64,000 nt of DNA from a candidate division FCPU426 bacterium (lineage in GTDB: Bacteria > Oederibacteriota > Muellerivitia > Muellerivitales > Muellerivitaceae). Under the pieces are notes generated by a model. The model saw only the letters and a program-made list of their open reading frames with translations, was not told where the DNA came from and searched no databases. This document shows positions 1,644-53,891 of this stretch, in pieces (within the stretch, counting starts at the first letter, position 1; every line of letters starts with the position of its first letter). A program made the position numbers and the translations under genes. Location of the stretch: contig CAWKAR010000050.1 in assembly GCA_963847625.1 (NCBI GenBank), forward strand, positions 32,001 through 96,000. Direction: 5' to 3'.

Positions 1644-1704
1644 ATGGTTATCGTCGCAAGAAATGTTTTCCGTGTTGAGGGGCACGGCCGGGTTTCATAT
1701 TCCA

Positions 1705-1779
1705 TGCCGATCTTCCATAAAGCTTACGAGGAGGCCGGTATTGCACCGATTTTTATGACAGCCTTATAGAAAATCGGCG
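1705..1779 (+). mobile_element. Double-hairpin miniature element, copy 1
   Basis: TGCC...GGCG, two 36-nt hairpins separated by 3 nt, flanked by CA/CA; homologous to five other copies. Confidence 0.7.
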
Positions 1780-1847
1780 CATGTTTATGATGGAAGCGGG
1801 GAAAATGAAATGGGGGGTTCAGCCGCCACTGATTCCCCATGAATCTG

Positions 1848-1922
1848 TGCCGATCTTTCATAAAAAACATTTTGAGATCGGTGCTATACCAGCCACTTTA
1901 ACCGTTTTATGGAGGGCTGGCA
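1848..1922 (-). mobile_element. Double-hairpin miniature element, copy 2
   Basis: TGCC...GGCA, 75 bp, flanked by TG/TG; reverse complement aligns with 53481-53554 and 53718-53791. Confidence 0.75.
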
Positions 1923-2037
1923 TGCGCCGGCAGTCTTCTCCCTCGGGCCGAATTTTATATCTATTAATTCAGCACACTCACATCTTGGGTTTCGGCTTGT
2001 AGCCTCAACCCAGAGGCCGGAAGTCTCGAGCGGCCTG

Positions 2038-23847: not shown

Positions 23848-23919
23848 ACACAGCGCTCAGAGGTTCGTCACCGGATGTTTTTAATAACCCGGTTTTGGAC
23901 TTGGAGTGGATCGGGATTG

Positions 23920-23993
23920 TGCCGATCATCTATAAAAATATATCGAGATTGGTACTATACCAACCTCCTTGAATAAATTATGGATAGTTGGCA
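23920..23993 (-). mobile_element. Double-hairpin miniature element, copy 3, inserted in a gene 3' end
   Basis: TGCC...GGCA, 74 bp, flanked by TG/TG; supplies the stop codon of the 23978-26089 CDS. Confidence 0.75.
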
Positions 23994-26089
23994 TGGGCCG
24001 CAAGCTCATCCAACTTTTGAAGGAGTTGGGGAGGAGGTTGGTAAATCGAATCCCACTTGGCTGCCTCCAGAAGGGCTTTTTTCGCCTCCGAGTAACGTTC
24101 CGCCTTCCCGAAAATCTGAGCCAGGTTGTAGTTCAACAGGCCGTTAGACCCGAAGCTCAAAGCTTTTTGAAAAGTTGTAAGGGCCAGAGTGTATTTCTTA
24201 TCCCAATAATAATTGTTGGCCAGCTTGCCCCAATAATAAAACTTGAGGAAGGAATCGCCCTGAAAGTCCGATTCCCTGTCCAATAGATACCGGATGGGTT
24301 TGTCCAGTGGTTGGGTAAAAGGATGGTCCAAAAGCAAAAAGTTCAATTCCCGCAGGTCCCGGTCCGCCTGGTTCCAACCCTCCAGGATTTTTCGGTTGGC
24401 GGGGTTCAAGGGGATAATGGCTTGAAGGTTGGAATCAGAGGGGGAAGGGCTTTTCCAGTCGGTAAAAACGGCATCAGGAAACAGCCTTGTTAAATGGGGG
24501 CGGCATCCATCGTCCGCGATGATTGCGGCCCAGGAAACTTTTCCGGAATCCAATGAAGGGTTAGCCAGGGTGTTGAATGAATAAGTCCCCACGTTCAAAT
24601 AAACCGGGAGCCATTCATCCATGGAAAAATCCGAATAAACCAAACCGGGACCGGAGGTTTGGCTGTGTTTCTTGAGGCTTTCGCATAGGGCGACCCTCGG
24701 ATTCGTGTCCGAAAAATCCCGGTTGGCGACGGCCATTGATTTTTCCAGGGTGACGTGGTCCAGGCCAATCGAAAGGAAAAAAACGGGAAGAATGAATGCA
24801 AATCTCGCTGGCCCATTGGGAAGTCCCCCCAGAACAGCTCCCAAACCCAAGGCCATGGTGGCGATGAAGAGGGGAAGAAGCGGCGCCAGATGATAACCAT
24901 TGATGTTGTTGGCCAGCAGGCAGGGCAGGAAAAGCACGGCGGCGCTTCCAGCCATCCATTTCGCCAGGGGGTGCCAGCGGAGGCGCCACCATTCCGCCGT
25001 CCCCATGAAGAAAAGGCTTCCCAGAATCGGATTCAAGAGGCCTCCCCAGCCGGAGTTGTACAGGAAATACCAGGGCTGGCCAGTCCAGAAAAGGTTGGTG
25101 AAGAGAAAGGCGTTTTGCCAGTAGTGCCAATGGTAAGTCTCGTCGCCCTTTTGGTTGAAAGCGAAAAGGATCCTGATATAAGCGCCGAAATTTTCCCTCA
25201 GGGCCGCAATCGCCAGGGGCAGGACCGTGAGAAAAGCGGCCGCCAGGAAAAGGAAGAGGTCCCATTTCCGGTTGGGCCAGGAACGGCGGAAGAACCAGCC
25301 GAGGGTAAGAATGACGCAAAGGGCTATCAGGGGCCAGGCGAAATAAGTGTAAAAACCCAGCCCCAGGCAAAACCCCAGAAAAATCGAAAGCGCCGGATGA
25401 TTACGATTTGAATCCGCGCTCAAGAACTTGGCCAGGATCCAGAATGCCAGGGCCTGACAGAAAACCATGAGGACGGCGTTGTGAGAAAAACGCCCGATAT
25501 AAACCGGCCAAAAGCTGATTCCCAATAAGACTAAGCACAAGAATGAGAAGGACTTGGAAAAAAACACGCGAAAGGCCCGGTAATAAATAACAATGGCGAG
25601 AAAGGAGAGGAAAGCGGGAACCAGCCAAAGATTCTGGAAAGAGACACCTCCGAATTTGAATTCTTCTGTTAATAGCCAGAGATAAAGAGGCGGTAATTGG
25701 CTGGAGTAATAAAAAAAAGGCCAGCCCCCATGGCCGTTCAGGTGGATCGCGCTATAGGCGTTCACGATTTCGTCCAGGATGGGAAAGGAAAGAAAAGAAG
25801 TCAGCTTGTAAAGGCGGACAACGAGGGCCAAACCCAGGATTAAATAAATCCACCAGATTACTGGAGTGAAAAGTTCCCGGGTGAAAAGGGGTTGTTCCTG
25901 CAGCGGGGCGGGTGGCTGGTTTTTCAAATAGAAAAAACCCAAGATCCCGAAGCCCAAAAGTCCCACCGCCAGTTTGATACCCCAATCCAGGGGCGAATAA
26001 GCCAGGAGGGTGTTGAGAGCCGCCAGAAGCGTGAAGAAGACGGCGGGCCTGGAAAAGAGGGCGGCCAAGATTAACCCGCTTACCGGCAA
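23978..26089 (-). CDS. GT-C fold (ArnT/PMT-like) membrane glycosyltransferase with C-terminal TPR
   Basis: Many TM helices, RLYKL...DE in the first loop, PPLY motif, TPR-like C-terminus. Confidence 0.75.
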   Translation of the reverse strand: MPVSGLILAALFSRPAVFFTLLAALNTLLAYSPLDWGIKLAVGLLGFGILGFFYLKNQPPAPLQEQPLFTRELFTPVIWWIYLILGLALVVRLYKLTSFLSFPILDEIVNAYSAIHLNGHGGWPFFYYSSQLPPLYLWLLTEEFKFGGVSFQNLWLVPAFLSFLAIVIYYRAFRVFFSKSFSFLCLVLLGISFWPVYIGRFSHNAVLMVFCQALAFWILAKFLSADSNRNHPALSIFLGFCLGLGFYTYFAWPLIALCVILTLGWFFRRSWPNRKWDLFLFLAAAFLTVLPLAIAALRENFGAYIRILFAFNQKGDETYHWHYWQNAFLFTNLFWTGQPWYFLYNSGWGGLLNPILGSLFFMGTAEWWRLRWHPLAKWMAGSAAVLFLPCLLANNINGYHLAPLLPLFIATMALGLGAVLGGLPNGPARFAFILPVFFLSIGLDHVTLEKSMAVANRDFSDTNPRVALCESLKKHSQTSGPGLVYSDFSMDEWLPVYLNVGTYSFNTLANPSLDSGKVSWAAIIADDGCRPHLTRLFPDAVFTDWKSPSPSDSNLQAIIPLNPANRKILEGWNQADRDLRELNFLLLDHPFTQPLDKPIRYLLDRESDFQGDSFLKFYYWGKLANNYYWDKKYTLALTTFQKALSFGSNGLLNYNLAQIFGKAERYSEAKKALLEAAKWDSIYQPPPQLLQKLDELAAHANYP

Positions 26090-31921: not shown

Positions 31922-32392
31922 TTCTAATAAGTTGCTAAAAAAACTCCAAAACGGATTTTTTCAGCTGACGACATTTGCGGAAACCCCACGATTCCTGCCC
32001 TGTTTCATTAGGTATCTATTAAAGATAACTGGGCATGCCATTTTGTCATTATGAGATTTATATGAAAAAATGGCGCGGAATCTTTGGGGTCGCAGGCTGC
32101 TTGGTGGGCCTATTATTACTTTTTCAGCCGCCTGCTAAATCCAAGCCATTTTATGACCGACTTGGGGTAAAAATCCCTTTGAATTTTTGTTGTTTTCCTG
32201 TCCCGCTTTTTGAAAAAAACAACCGATTGCAATGATTTTCATCTTATTTACTGCGAAAAGCGTATTGAACCGGATGATTTTGTAGAGTGAGTTAAAATGA
32301 ATGTAACCTTAGTGTTTTCAAGAAACTTATCTATAAAAGATTCAAGTATGAGCGATAAAATATAAAAATCTACGCCACACTGAGAGTAGCCA

Positions 32393-35892: not shown

Positions 35893-36810
35893 TCAAACCA
35901 CCTCTGTTAATTTTTTGTAAGTAAGCCTTTTTCCAATCGAAGCATCAATAAGACTTGTCAAACGCTCTTGGGTTGTGCGGGTTACGTTTCCATCATTCAA
36001 ACGGAAAGTGAATTCATTGACATAACGGGCTAAATGTTTCTTTTCCACCCGACCATGATAAACCCCGTTCAAACCTCTCTTTAAAATCGCCCAAACACTC
36101 TCAACTCCGTTAGTGGTTACATCACCACGGACATATTCTTCTTTGCTATGAGTTACAAATTCATGTTTGTATTCAGGCATTTCTTTATAGGCTGTTGCTT
36201 CATCCGTAAAAATTTCGGAACCCGATTCAACATTTTCGCGAACGGCTTCTTTGATAGTTGGAATCTTAACGTTGTTTAATGGTTCAGCGATAACCAAGCC
36301 GTCATCTTCTCGCATTCCTATAACCGGAACCTTTCCACGAGTACCACGACCGCCTATTCTTTTATTTGCGTGTTTGTTTTTTTCTTTACCACCCACATAA
36401 GTTTCGTCAATTTCAATAACGCCATTCAGCTTTCCCAAATCTTGCCCGCAAGCTTCCCGAATACGCCCAAGCATGAACCAAGCCGACTTTTGAGTAACCC
36501 CGATCTCTTTTGAAAGTTGCATACTAGATATTCCTTTACGTGCTGTTACCAAAAGGTACATGGCATATAACCACTTGTGAAGAGGTATATGGCTTCTCTC
36601 GAAAATGGTTCCAGTTCGTACCGTAAAGTCCAGGATGCAAACATTACAGCAATAAAATTCAGGTTTGCGGTTGCCGATTCTCTTGGTTTCTCCGCAAAAC
36701 GGGCAAACTGGGCCATTGGGCCAACGAAGTTTTTCAATGTGTTGCCTTGCGGATTCTGCATCCGGAAACATTGAGAAGAGTTGGAATGTGCTAATCGCTG
36801 TGTTTTTCAT
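35893..36810 (-). CDS. IS1595 family (ISXO2-like) transposase
   Basis: RWPNGPVCPFC...CNVC zinc ribbon, KGISS, EIDETY, FTDE, TNGVES, YVNEFTFR. Confidence 0.95.
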   Translation of the reverse strand: MKNTAISTFQLFSMFPDAESARQHIEKLRWPNGPVCPFCGETKRIGNRKPEFYCCNVCILDFTVRTGTIFERSHIPLHKWLYAMYLLVTARKGISSMQLSKEIGVTQKSAWFMLGRIREACGQDLGKLNGVIEIDETYVGGKEKNKHANKRIGGRGTRGKVPVIGMREDDGLVIAEPLNNVKIPTIKEAVRENVESGSEIFTDEATAYKEMPEYKHEFVTHSKEEYVRGDVTTNGVESVWAILKRGLNGVYHGRVEKKHLARYVNEFTFRLNDGNVTRTTQERLTSLIDASIGKRLTYKKLTEVV

Positions 36811-49249: not shown

Positions 49250-50604
49250 GGTAGTGTATTTTTGGGGGGTGTAAAAAGAAGCGGGCGTAACATGGTGTTT
49301 GTCTAGAACGCCATATCCTTTTTGTGAAAGGAAGTTACGCCCATGAAGAATATACACCTAGCCTTACAGGCCTTGGCAAGAGAGAAAACTCAAGCCTGGG
49401 TGAAATCTGTGGTTGGAAGCCGTGAGGTCGGCGAATGGGTAGGAGAAGCCCTGAATCAACAACTTTCGGAGGCTTTCAACGCCCAGTTGAGGAAAGAACG
49501 GGATGAAGCGTTGAATCGCCAGCCATATGAAAGGCAGGAAGGAAGCCGGTATCGCAATGGGTTCAAGCGGATCCTAGTTGCTGGATTTCTGGGACCTTTG
49601 GTGCTGAAAAAGCCAGTTTTGAGGAAAGGCGGATTTGTTTCGGAAACTCTGACGGCATTGAGAGCTGGAAGCCAAGCCTTGGTGGGATTTCTGGGAATGA
49701 AGTTCTGGCTAAAGGGGGCTTCCACCCGGTCGGTGGCGGCAGGGCTAAACGAGGCCTTTGGAACTAAGCTGACAGCCAATCACGTTAGCCAGATGACCAA
49801 TGCCTTAAAACCTACCCTGGAAGCCTGGGCTAAACGGCTATTACCCACCGGGATTCAATACTTGTACTTGGATGCCCTTTACCTGACGGTCAGGCGACAG
49901 GAAGCCGGTGTGAAACAAGCTTTGCTGGTGGCCATCGGGGTGGATGGGAACCTGAAGAGGCATTTTCTGGGGTACATGGTGGGAGACCGTGAAAGTGAGT
50001 CGGCCTGGGAAGCCATGTTGGAAGACTTGTTGAACAGAGGCTTAGACAGAAAAAGCTTACGAATGGTGGTATCCGACGCCCACGGTGGAATTGTCGCGGC
50101 GGTGAAAAATCGTCTTGGAATCCCCCATCAATTATGCTTGGTACACAAGATGGAAAACGTCCGGTGTCGAGTGGCCCAGAAGGACAGAAAGGCATTCATG
50201 GCTGATTTCAAAGCGGTGTATTGGGCCGAAAGTCGAGAGAACGCCTTGGTGGCACTAGGAAGTCTCAAGGCTAAGTGGGCCAAAACCTATCCCAAAGCAG
50301 TGGAGATGGCAGAGGAAAAATTCGACTCCTATACGCAGTTTTTCCAGGAAGACCGGAAGTTTTGGAAGATTACCCGCACCAGCAACCTAATCGAACGGCT
50401 TAACGAGGAGTTAAGGAAAAGGCTGAGGCCAGCGGGGATGATGCAGAACGAGCTGGAGATCGCCAAGTTGGTGTGGGGGGTAACCGAAACCCAACAACAA
50501 AATTGGAACAAGACTAAAGCCTACACCTCAAGAAGGGAGGCGGAGGTTCAAGCTGCTTGATTAAGACGCCCGTGGAAATTTACACCCAAAATATTGACGC
50601 AGGG
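49250..50604 (+). mobile_element. IS256-family insertion sequence
   Basis: Target duplication GCCCTGTG at 49242-49249 and 50605-50612 (9 bp if the preceding G is counted); imperfect 26-bp ends sharing GGGTGTAAA. Confidence 0.88.
49343..50560 (+). CDS. IS256 family transposase
   Basis: YRNG, GASTR, YLYLDA, VVSDAHGG, QLCLVH, TSNLIERLNEE DDE-type motifs. Confidence 0.95.
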   Translation: MKNIHLALQALAREKTQAWVKSVVGSREVGEWVGEALNQQLSEAFNAQLRKERDEALNRQPYERQEGSRYRNGFKRILVAGFLGPLVLKKPVLRKGGFVSETLTALRAGSQALVGFLGMKFWLKGASTRSVAAGLNEAFGTKLTANHVSQMTNALKPTLEAWAKRLLPTGIQYLYLDALYLTVRRQEAGVKQALLVAIGVDGNLKRHFLGYMVGDRESESAWEAMLEDLLNRGLDRKSLRMVVSDAHGGIVAAVKNRLGIPHQLCLVHKMENVRCRVAQKDRKAFMADFKAVYWAESRENALVALGSLKAKWAKTYPKAVEMAEEKFDSYTQFFQEDRKFWKITRTSNLIERLNEELRKRLRPAGMMQNELEIAKLVWGVTETQQQNWNKTKAYTSRREAEVQAA

Positions 50605-53348: not shown

Positions 53349-53480
53349 ACGGATAAGCCCGATATTTTATATTTGCAAGCATTGTTGTCCAAATAAAACA
53401 AAATCCAATGAACAAAGATAAATAAAATCAGTAATTCTTTAGTCTAAAAGACGTTAAGCAAAACCTAGTTCTACGCCACA

Positions 53481-53554
53481 TGCCAATCTTCCATGAAGCT
53501 TATAAAGAGATTGGTATAGTACTGATCACATTATATTTTTATGGATGATCAGCA
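53481..53554 (+). mobile_element. Double-hairpin miniature element, copy 4
   Basis: TGCC...AGCA, 74 bp, flanked by CA/CA. Confidence 0.78.
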
Positions 53555-53569
53555 CAGATTCAGGGGATG

Positions 53570-53647
53570 TGCCGATTCACCCCCAAAGCAGTTAAGGAAA
53601 TCGGTACTATACCGAACTTTCATTGAAAGCTTTAATGAGGTTCGGCA
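53570..53647 (-). mobile_element. Double-hairpin miniature element, copy 5
   Basis: TGCC...GGCA, 78 bp, flanked by TG/TG. Confidence 0.75.
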
Positions 53648-53717
53648 TGAACTCGGATTGGCCAAAGAAAAAAGGCTTTAAATATTTATGTTTATTAAAT
53701 CCCATGAATCCCATGTA

Positions 53718-53791
53718 TGCCAGCCTTCTATAAAGCTTTTAATGGGGCTGGTATCATACCGATCTCATTATGTTTTTATGGATGATCGGCA
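53718..53791 (+). mobile_element. Double-hairpin miniature element, copy 6
   Basis: TGCC...GGCA, 74 bp, flanked by TA/TA. Confidence 0.78.
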
Positions 53792-53891
53792 TATCCGTGG
53801 CTAGGTGTATTTTGGACAGGTGTGATTCGTAAGAGCAAACCGGAAGATTAAGCCAGCCGTAAATACCGAATTTATTCCCCAAAGGATCAAC

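Follow-up and report, generated by a model that had tools for sequence, protein, structure and literature searches.

How tiny palindromic repeats such as REPINs, RPEs and SMRs spread has long been an open question, and clean pairs of filled and empty sites, like variants in specificity, are rare among them. One described route is that of the Marinomonas TnpA-REP: T2 and G4 of its GTAG guide determine cleavage at C|A, the base between them stays unpaired, and altering the guide alters the site (PMC8266576). Circles of BIMEs and tandem amplification have been proposed for TnpA-REP (PMC3333891). The element family described here supplies hundreds of copies in one bacterial family, alleles with zero, one or two elements, arrays, and linker variants that track the flanking dinucleotide.

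The window analyzed here is a stretch of 64,000 nt, positions 32,001 to 96,000 of the forward strand of contig CAWKAR010000050.1 (GCA_963847625.1; labelled contig C50). The focal genome (G000) comprises 4.43 Mb in 63 contigs. A first-pass annotation of the window had reported six copies of a double-hairpin element, and the coordinates and strands it gave proved exact (lengths of 75, 75, 74, 74, 78 and 74 nt). Hairpins of 36 to 38 and 35 to 37 nt around a 3-nt linker were found in all six copies as claimed, with flanks CA/CA in five and TA/TA in one. The copies and the host repeat that carries three of them are as follows.

1704..1780, + strand: element copy; body 1705-1779; linker TTG at 1741-1743; stem-2 variant CAC../..GCG
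1847..1923, - strand: element copy; body 1848-1922; linker TAG at 1884-1886
23919..23994, - strand: element copy; body 23920-23993; linker TAG at 23955-23957; at the 3' end of a glycosyltransferase-like ORF
53380..53832 (boundaries approximate), no strand: host repeat with three element copies; a gene-less palindrome with GxxExxY-type arms
53480..53555, + strand: element copy with revised ends A...C; body 53481-53554, TGCC..GGCA; linker TAG at 53517-53519; flanks CA/CA
53569..53648, - strand: element copy; body 53570-53647; linker TAG at 53607-53609; flanks CA/CA in element orientation
53717..53792, + strand: element copy of the TA sub-lineage with ends A...T; body 53718-53791; linker TCA at 53754-53756, whose A pairs with the terminal T; flanks TA/TA

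When the three elements were removed in script, the host repeat matched an uninterrupted copy on contig C60 at 93% over 209 nt. The host repeat (approximately 53380-53832) is itself an insertion, since the whole stretch is missing from the orthologous gap of a genome of the same genus (G001), and its arm motif has 114 matches on both strands of the focal genome. The G001 homologue of the glycosyltransferase-like gene end at 23919..23994 is without the element, and its upstream side is not syntenic. The window also holds an IS256-family element (49250-50603), for which the expected duplication of 8 to 9 bp was found to be 9 bp, and an IS1595-family transposase (35893-36810).

An iterated HMM seeded with the six window copies returned 183 non-redundant matches at E<=1 in the 4.43-Mb focal genome and 151 at E<1e-3; the same genome after block shuffling returned none. 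Full-length parsing succeeded for 120 focal-genome copies, most of them 73 to 78 bp long. A structure-only scan, blind to sequence and looking for two hairpins around a 1-nt bulge, gave 83 sites, 70 with a repeated dinucleotide, and 68 of these 70 were the double-hairpin element. In 2.3 Mb of shuffled DNA the scan found one site and none with a repeated dinucleotide. The Rfam 15 covariance models gave no match at gathering score in the window and no match at E<=1 in eight element loci.

The search of the whole genome and its relatives that the first-pass annotation had proposed was run with a covariance model built from 41 copies; at most 47 candidates were scored per genome, so the results are not copy numbers. 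The family set consisted of the focal genome and 30 others, with 68 genomes outside the family for comparison. Including the focal genome, 28 of the 31 family genomes carry the element (27 of the 30 others), whereas a single genome among the 68 from outside gave a match, a weak one. G008, G012 and G017, the three family members that lack it, form the deepest branch on the FtsE tree. Two patterns gave no match in viral contigs, and the element was not found in plasmid and phage collections. Scans of genome contigs and of metagenomes listed at least 18 and at least 100 loci, and the range of the element may reach beyond the phylum.

Comparison of 103 distinct copies defined each stem as nine pairs counted from the flank. 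Pairing is retained in 91 to 102 of the 103 copies at each stem position except the third, which is a conserved mismatch, G-T in stem 1 (95/103) and A-C in stem 2 (96/103), placed three pairs from the junction in both stems. In an alignment of 41 copies, mostly from relatives, 10 of the 18 stem pairs show compensatory change, a result matched in none of 500 shuffles, which confirms the earlier observation that the first stem varies yet stays paired. Three of the six window copies (1705, 23920 and 53570) reach their energy minimum as a single long hairpin or as a cloverleaf rather than as a double hairpin; it is covariation, not folding energy, that argues for the double-hairpin structure.

The outermost pairs join the flank base adjoining the element to linker bases 1 and 3. 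The linker T-N-G thereby pairs with the flanking A and C, and the stems extend one base into each flank. From this pairing, the strand A-TGCC...GGTA-T N G-TACC...GGCA-C is predicted to fold with its ends abutting over the linker and one base bulged, and the opposite strand of the element folds likewise. An excised strand, we infer, would fold as a dumbbell splinted across its own junction. The loops (approximately 20 nt) vary freely and take insertions of 20 to 60 nt and extra hairpins. In some copies the end reads GGGA and stem 2 has TCCC to match, so that the terminal TGCC is lost and the pairing is kept; judged by such variants, the central structure appears to matter more than the terminal sequence. 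Outside the conserved position, G-T and A-C mismatches number 26 and 25, and since neither strand is favored this fits selection on DNA rather than RNA. The junction TCGGCA-CA-TGCCGA, read directly from the sequence, is a perfect dyad. Composite copies with one or two extra hairpins (approximately 140 bp) and single-hairpin derivatives with a central deletion, still bounded by CA, were seen among the sites C21:16261-16405, C3:30335-30478, C40:94678-94941 and C26:77026.

The first-pass annotation had proposed that empty sites with a single dinucleotide should be sought, and these were found in a ~190-bp repeat, at the ftsE start and in the host repeat. When the flanks of the 120 copies were rejoined over one dinucleotide, 57 had a match elsewhere in the focal genome with at most two mismatches in 22, and approximately three of the matches are junctions of other copies. 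The ~190-bp repeat occurs empty (five), with one element (five) and with two different elements sharing a CA (one), from 13 motif matches of which two were unrelated or truncated. At its ends this repeat resembles the linker region of the element, one end reading CTATACC. An element variant in stem 2 is inserted in it, and its sites include C22:5124, C24:56060, C25:103903, C45:80907 and C49:13840. For the copy at 53717-53792, one sequencing-run contig, from four low-share contig sets of one study, skips the element and reads CA; that contig probably derives from another copy of the host repeat.

At the start of ftsE, 30 family genomes were compared, of which three outgroup genomes do not align. 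Seven have a full element at the same C|A (five by pattern, two by eye), six have remnants (by eye), 13 including the focal genome are cleanly empty and one is unclear. Filled and empty alleles alternate inside genera g3, g6 and g13 and differ precisely by the element plus one dinucleotide. Tandem arrays are the other sign of movement. The focal genome has 12 head-to-tail junctions, many of which join unlike copies, and G001 has arrays of seven to eight units, one with two types mixed. Nearly all array junctions have a single common dinucleotide (CA), so that the GGCA-CA-TGCC junction that had been predicted for circles is present in genomic arrays. Empty sites, arrays and covariation together uphold the proposal of a non-autonomous mobile element recognized through its structure, and as judged from these genome comparisons the element is real, lineage-wide and mobile.

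These alleles also bear on the reading of the repeats as a static operator, terminator or other regulatory motif. Copies are mostly intergenic (17 of 151 lie inside mechanically called ORFs, many of them spurious) and one copy places GGAG just upstream of ftsE, as such a motif might. The precise filled and empty alleles and the tandem arrays refute it as an origin, and we regard this reading as hardly tenable.

The ftsE start itself (C40 near 6802; L356, L341-L370) has a conserved promoter-like motif, TTGCG-N17-TAA(T/C)TT, 6 to 7 nt before the ATG, which suggests that the ftsE mRNA is leaderless in the empty genomes. In filled genomes of several genera the element starts at the predicted +1 and supplies GGAG approximately 9 nt before the ATG, turning the predicted leaderless start into one with a leader; local domestication of the element is possible at this gene. 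Dense clusters of copies at C3:6000-46000 and in G001 (L111, L112) alternate with toxin-antitoxin pairs, AAA_14 ATPases and IS, and look like a cassette array without an integrase.

The flank pairs of the 120 focal-genome copies are CA/CA (95), CG/CG (9), TA/TA (4) and mixed (12). Left and right dinucleotides agree in 108 copies against 86.2 expected, which none of 10,000 permutations reached. Linkers in the same copies are TAG (55), TCG (28), TTG (9), TGG (5), TCA (5), CAG (5) and CTG (3). A linker starting with C was present in eight of nine focal-genome copies with G at -1 and in none of 104 with another base (113 of the 120 linkers parsed, the seven unparsed ones dropped; Fisher p 2e-11, which is overstated because the copies are related). 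Among relatives the corresponding counts are six of seven and none of 116 (123 parsed of 200 matches). Over both sets, C-N-G linkers outside CG flanks number 0 of 220. The C-linker copies reduce to three target clusters and lie at six places on a tree made with the linker masked, a weak tree given the short sequences. For the third linker base, A accompanies T at +1 in five of seven focal-genome copies against one of 106 otherwise, all from one sub-lineage, and the rule fails in relatives (0/3).

Two polymorphic host sites show the same dependence. At the first, empty alleles read CG (78) or CA (13); T-linker copies there are flanked by CA/CA (9) or CA/CG (2), and all three C-linker copies by CG/CG. 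The CA/CG copies would arise from an element that brings its own A into a C|G target. At the second, empty alleles read CA (48), AA (39) or TA (3), and the filled ones are CA/CA with T-N-G linkers (10) or TA/TA with TCA (3). Since the linker pairs and covaries with the innermost flank bases, the element probably extends by one base at either end. The apparent 2-bp duplication would then combine, at each end, a base of the element with a base of the target, the cut falling at C|A. The earlier view of the dinucleotide as a plain target duplication, incompatible with HUH enzymes, is not supported in view of this pairing. A possible alternative is a genuine 2-bp duplication on which selection for pairing acted later. 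The mixed flanks bear on this; in the focal genome they differ approximately seven times at the outer base and approximately three times at the inner base.

Beyond the dinucleotide, the targets have no consensus (244 non-tandem copies, 63 contexts). They do favor particular host palindromes. GxxExxY-type arms hold 38 of 73 non-tandem copies in the focal genome and 115 of 171 in relatives; of 3000 intergenic CA sites, 127 (4%) lie in such arms. The palindrome motif classes used here were defined after the data were seen. In family genomes these arm words also border the genes for GxxExxY (PF13366). At locus L028 (G021:C15:16010-16620) a GxxExxY gene lies between two inverted variant element copies inside its arms. 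Further host repeats are presumably of the GTCATTGCGAG type, IS200-like or other palindromes. Approximately half of the focal-genome sites belong to repeats of other, unrelated kinds or to unique DNA, one of them at a tRNA 3' end. The two largest focal-genome site clusters each hold seven element subtypes with less than 88% identity, so insertion was repeated and the copies were not just co-amplified. On this distribution, the element behaves as a hyperparasite of nuclease-associated palindromes.

When 46 de-duplicated target sites were reconstructed, they folded better over +-80 nt than intergenic controls did (p 0.018), and pairing dropped at the cut site itself; the gain is modest, and over +-30 nt folding is no better than background (p 0.63). 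On the G-rich strand lie 52 of 101 copies, with a GC skew too noisy in the focal assembly. Two promoter-based readings were rejected: transcription-start targeting as a general rule (a -10 box at two of 63 targets, top strand, against a background of 4.3%) and a sigma-54 promoter (no -12 motif after GGCAC ends, by eye). One divergent copy, at C3:95364-95616, has the linker CAG between CG flanks. It adjoins the 3' end of a tRNA-Leu, which its first bases restore, and a phage-like integrase lies next to it.

The preference for nuclease-associated arms raises the possibility that there is no dedicated transposase and that the dumbbell owes its spread to host repair or to nucleases of its host repeats. 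For example, the GxxExxY PD-(D/E)XK nuclease would make a nick at C|A in the arms around its own gene, the element in its folded form would be copied or ligated in, and precise loss would follow from slippage across the two dinucleotides. The enrichment in arms fits this, as do GxxExxY genes in 27 of the 31 family genomes, the G021 gene bracketed by two copies, and persistence throughout the family, which suits a host-level factor. The same C|A rule holds, however, at the half or so of focal sites outside such arms, including the tRNA 3' end and the ftsE start; G012 and G017 have GxxExxY yet no element; and slippage alone leaves the linker-dependent choice of site unexplained. We consider this explanation unlikely, though worth keeping in mind.

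An RNA route was also weighed, in which the transcribed element closes to a small circular RNA and is reverse-transcribed in trans by a group II intron RT. The bottom strand of the element reads GTGCC...AT or ...AC, which we take to resemble group II boundaries, and the focal genome has two group II-type RTs. The identical 8-unit arrays fit rolling copy, and the ftsE copy begins at a predicted transcription start. Catalytic domain V and the bulged A are absent, though, G-U pairs show no bias on either strand (26 vs 25), orientation relative to the gene reading in is balanced (35 vs 34), the -10 box is not enriched at targets (2/63) and Rfam gives no match. We judge this route very improbable.

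The search for a mobilizing enzyme covered the focal genome and the neighborhoods of the element. The longer copies enclosing an ORF that the first-pass annotation had suggested as an autonomous partner were not found in the focal genome: half-element HMMs showed no pair enclosing an ORF, ORFs between paired copies included no recurring recombinase or nuclease, and self-BLAST with IS ends gave no such partner. The flanks of tyrosine recombinases (16 of 18 focal-genome matches viewed) gave no element-like partner. No recurring recombinase or nuclease family appeared among 925 neighboring ORFs or in Pfam searches of 50 of the 134 G001 neighbors, and clustering of the neighbors of 249 loci gave only housekeeping, IS and toxin-antitoxin genes. 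The focal genome also has nine related tyrosine integrases, several adjoining tRNA ends.

A scan for HUH motifs found only three TIRYT-type Y1 genes in the focal genome, with GGGGTCAG flanks at which IS110 copies are inserted. For subclass 2.1 TIRYT, the class of these genes, REP-like flanks have not been reported (PMC6006769). Y1_Tnp is present in 22 of the 31 family genomes, including the three without the element, and absent from nine with it. No element lies inside Y1 loci L049-L078, and three TIRYT genes of G001 have an element within 0.5 kb. By comparison with the element (28/31), GxxExxY genes occur in 27, IS30 above cut-off in eight and IS110 in six of the 31 family genomes, counts that are lower bounds for IS and recombinases because draft genomes can lose IS copies.

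The IS30-like mover suggested at first would make the element a MITE of a DDE transposase, with TGCCGA/TCGGCA repeats, a true 2-bp CA duplication, inner half-sites as extra binding sites and covariation through template switching. Both ends are indeed TG...CA, the first ~15 bases resemble the ends of focal IS30, and the junction spacing is 2 bp. Two types of IS30 are present in the focal genome, with approximately 50 copies in all and 57 profile matches. Their duplications, however, are of 3 bp and arbitrary sequence (31/36 and 18/18), their conserved GTGCAACAC block is missing from the element, the element's range far exceeds theirs at the cut-off (8/31 against 28/31), and variants end in GGGA rather than GGCA. 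Template switching is disfavored because it would erase the mismatch kept in 95 to 96 of 103 copies. An IS30-like origin is thus rather improbable.

Much the same applies to conservative double-strand recombination at a 2-bp core, by an IS110-type enzyme as for MITEPpu9 or by a serine enzyme, with the junction as catalytic dyad and the middle dyad as accessory site. Matching cores, tandems and insertion in palindromes parallel MITEPpu9 (PMC12288879, in its available portion). The perfect dyad at the junction would suit such an enzyme. The five focal resolvase-domain matches lack element-like ends, and the ends of the focal IS110 types, bounded by AG, are unrelated to those of the element, which, with IS110 in only six of 31 genomes, counts against the IS110-type mover that had been suggested. 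The target of a bridge RNA spans approximately 11 to 14 nt, and the single dinucleotide common to the 63 target contexts is too little for it. Covariation, moreover, spans the loops and not the dyads. We find core recombination quite unlikely.

The explanation that we favor, though with no better than even confidence, is a non-autonomous element that moves as single-stranded DNA by an HUH/Y1-like 'peel and paste', with the linker as both splint and guide. It is favored because the T-N-G rule found here equals the T/G rule of TnpA-REP at C|A, and the genomic covariation of linker and flank is consistent with guide-paired single-strand cleavage at the dinucleotide. The element would be A-TGCC...GGCA-C. 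On a strand exposed at a replication fork, a cruciform or an open promoter, both hairpins would fold and the two C|A steps would meet over the T-N-G linker, where a trans-acting enzyme would cut and join both. The product would be a single-stranded circle of ~76 nt in dumbbell form, in which a single base bulges out across from the junction; the donor C|A would be restored. The circle would re-insert at a C|A in an unpaired stretch, chosen by linker T and G, and a C-N-G linker would select C|G targets. Arrays would come from insertion at an existing junction or from rolling copy.

Several points count against single-strand movement. Searches of the focal genome and of neighbors yielded no enzyme, and Y1_Tnp occurs in the three family genomes that lack the element and is missing from nine that have it; known Y1 enzymes are strand-specific and the element is pseudo-symmetric; the third-base rule of the linker fails in relatives; three focal-genome copies differ at the inner and not the outer flank base; and over +-30 nt the targets show no excess of folding. 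More tentatively, the element could be the type member of an undescribed class of minimal self-guided DNA transposons, in which the linker splints the junction and sets the target dinucleotide. Its enzyme would then belong to none of the known Y1, IS110, DDE and serine families, and might be encoded by the host lineage or be the GxxExxY nuclease. If the single-strand reading is true, a smaller DNA-guided mobile element can hardly be imagined, and this one would offer a way towards a new single-strand recombinase.

The open-access literature gave no description of the element family or of a linker-splinted dumbbell. Its diagnostic words are absent from the available part of the Rickettsia RPE and REP supplements (PMC3733652) and from the REP tables of two surveys, except for seven TGCCGA matches in one, the two viewed being unrelated. 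The first-pass annotation had left the element outside all named families, and this holds: it lacks defining features of REPINs, PATEs, IS30 MITEs and IS110 MITEs, and Rfam has none of it. The Rickettsia RPEs and CGTC/GTAG REP dimers are likewise small palindromes, some as dimers 1 to 5 bp apart inside other palindromes (PMC3733652, same portion); unlike them, the element has no CGTC or GTAG tag and is not mainly intragenic and in frame. Like MITEPpu9 (ssr9) of ISPpu9, it is a small, putatively circle-forming module with a 2-bp core, tandems and insertion in palindromes. Unlike MITEPpu9, which the available part of PMC12288879 describes with a cognate IS of the same ends and one REP target, the element has unrelated targets and no focal IS110 has its ends.

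The closest parallels are with REPINs and BIMEs, where an inverted doublet of short hairpins is the replicative unit, non-autonomous and extragenic, with tandem arrays and insertion into other repeats (PMC3116915 and PMC3333891, in part), and with TnpA-Mb, whose base-paired choice of the dinucleotide cleavage site has T.G selecting C|A (PMC8266576, in part). Unlike REPIN and REP sequences, the element lacks the GT(A/G)G (or CGTC) foot and has the linker T-N-G after GGTA instead. It has one common 3-nt linker that pairs with its own ends and loops of ~20 nt, its ends are precise and symmetric where REPIN excision, in the sources as available, is asymmetric, and no RAYT or REPtron-like gene flanked by it was found in the focal genome or at Y1 loci L049-L078. 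With PATEs and IS200/IS605 ends it shares two fused hairpins, the absence of a transposase and probably of a true duplication (PMC3119063, in part). Its hairpins, unlike theirs as described there, extend to the very ends, and its target is 2 nt (C|A) instead of 4 to 6. PATEs differ further, since the element has no parent IS200/605 with the same ends; family IS200 ends are different GC hairpins, and some of these types are element targets.

The SMR-A/B repeats of Haloquadratum (80 to 110 bp) also have inverted termini without a counterpart in known transposons, choose the palindromes of other mobile elements as targets and lack an identified mover (PMC3119063, in part). They are archaeal, without target duplication and more than 95% identical within a type, and the available description mentions no double hairpin or linker pairing. 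By analogy, it is these unexplained SMRs that the element most resembles in lifestyle. The element works like a REPIN or a PATE yet lacks what defines membership in either, and what is new, as read from the aligned copies, is that its stems covary and extend onto the flanks and its linker pairs with its own ends.
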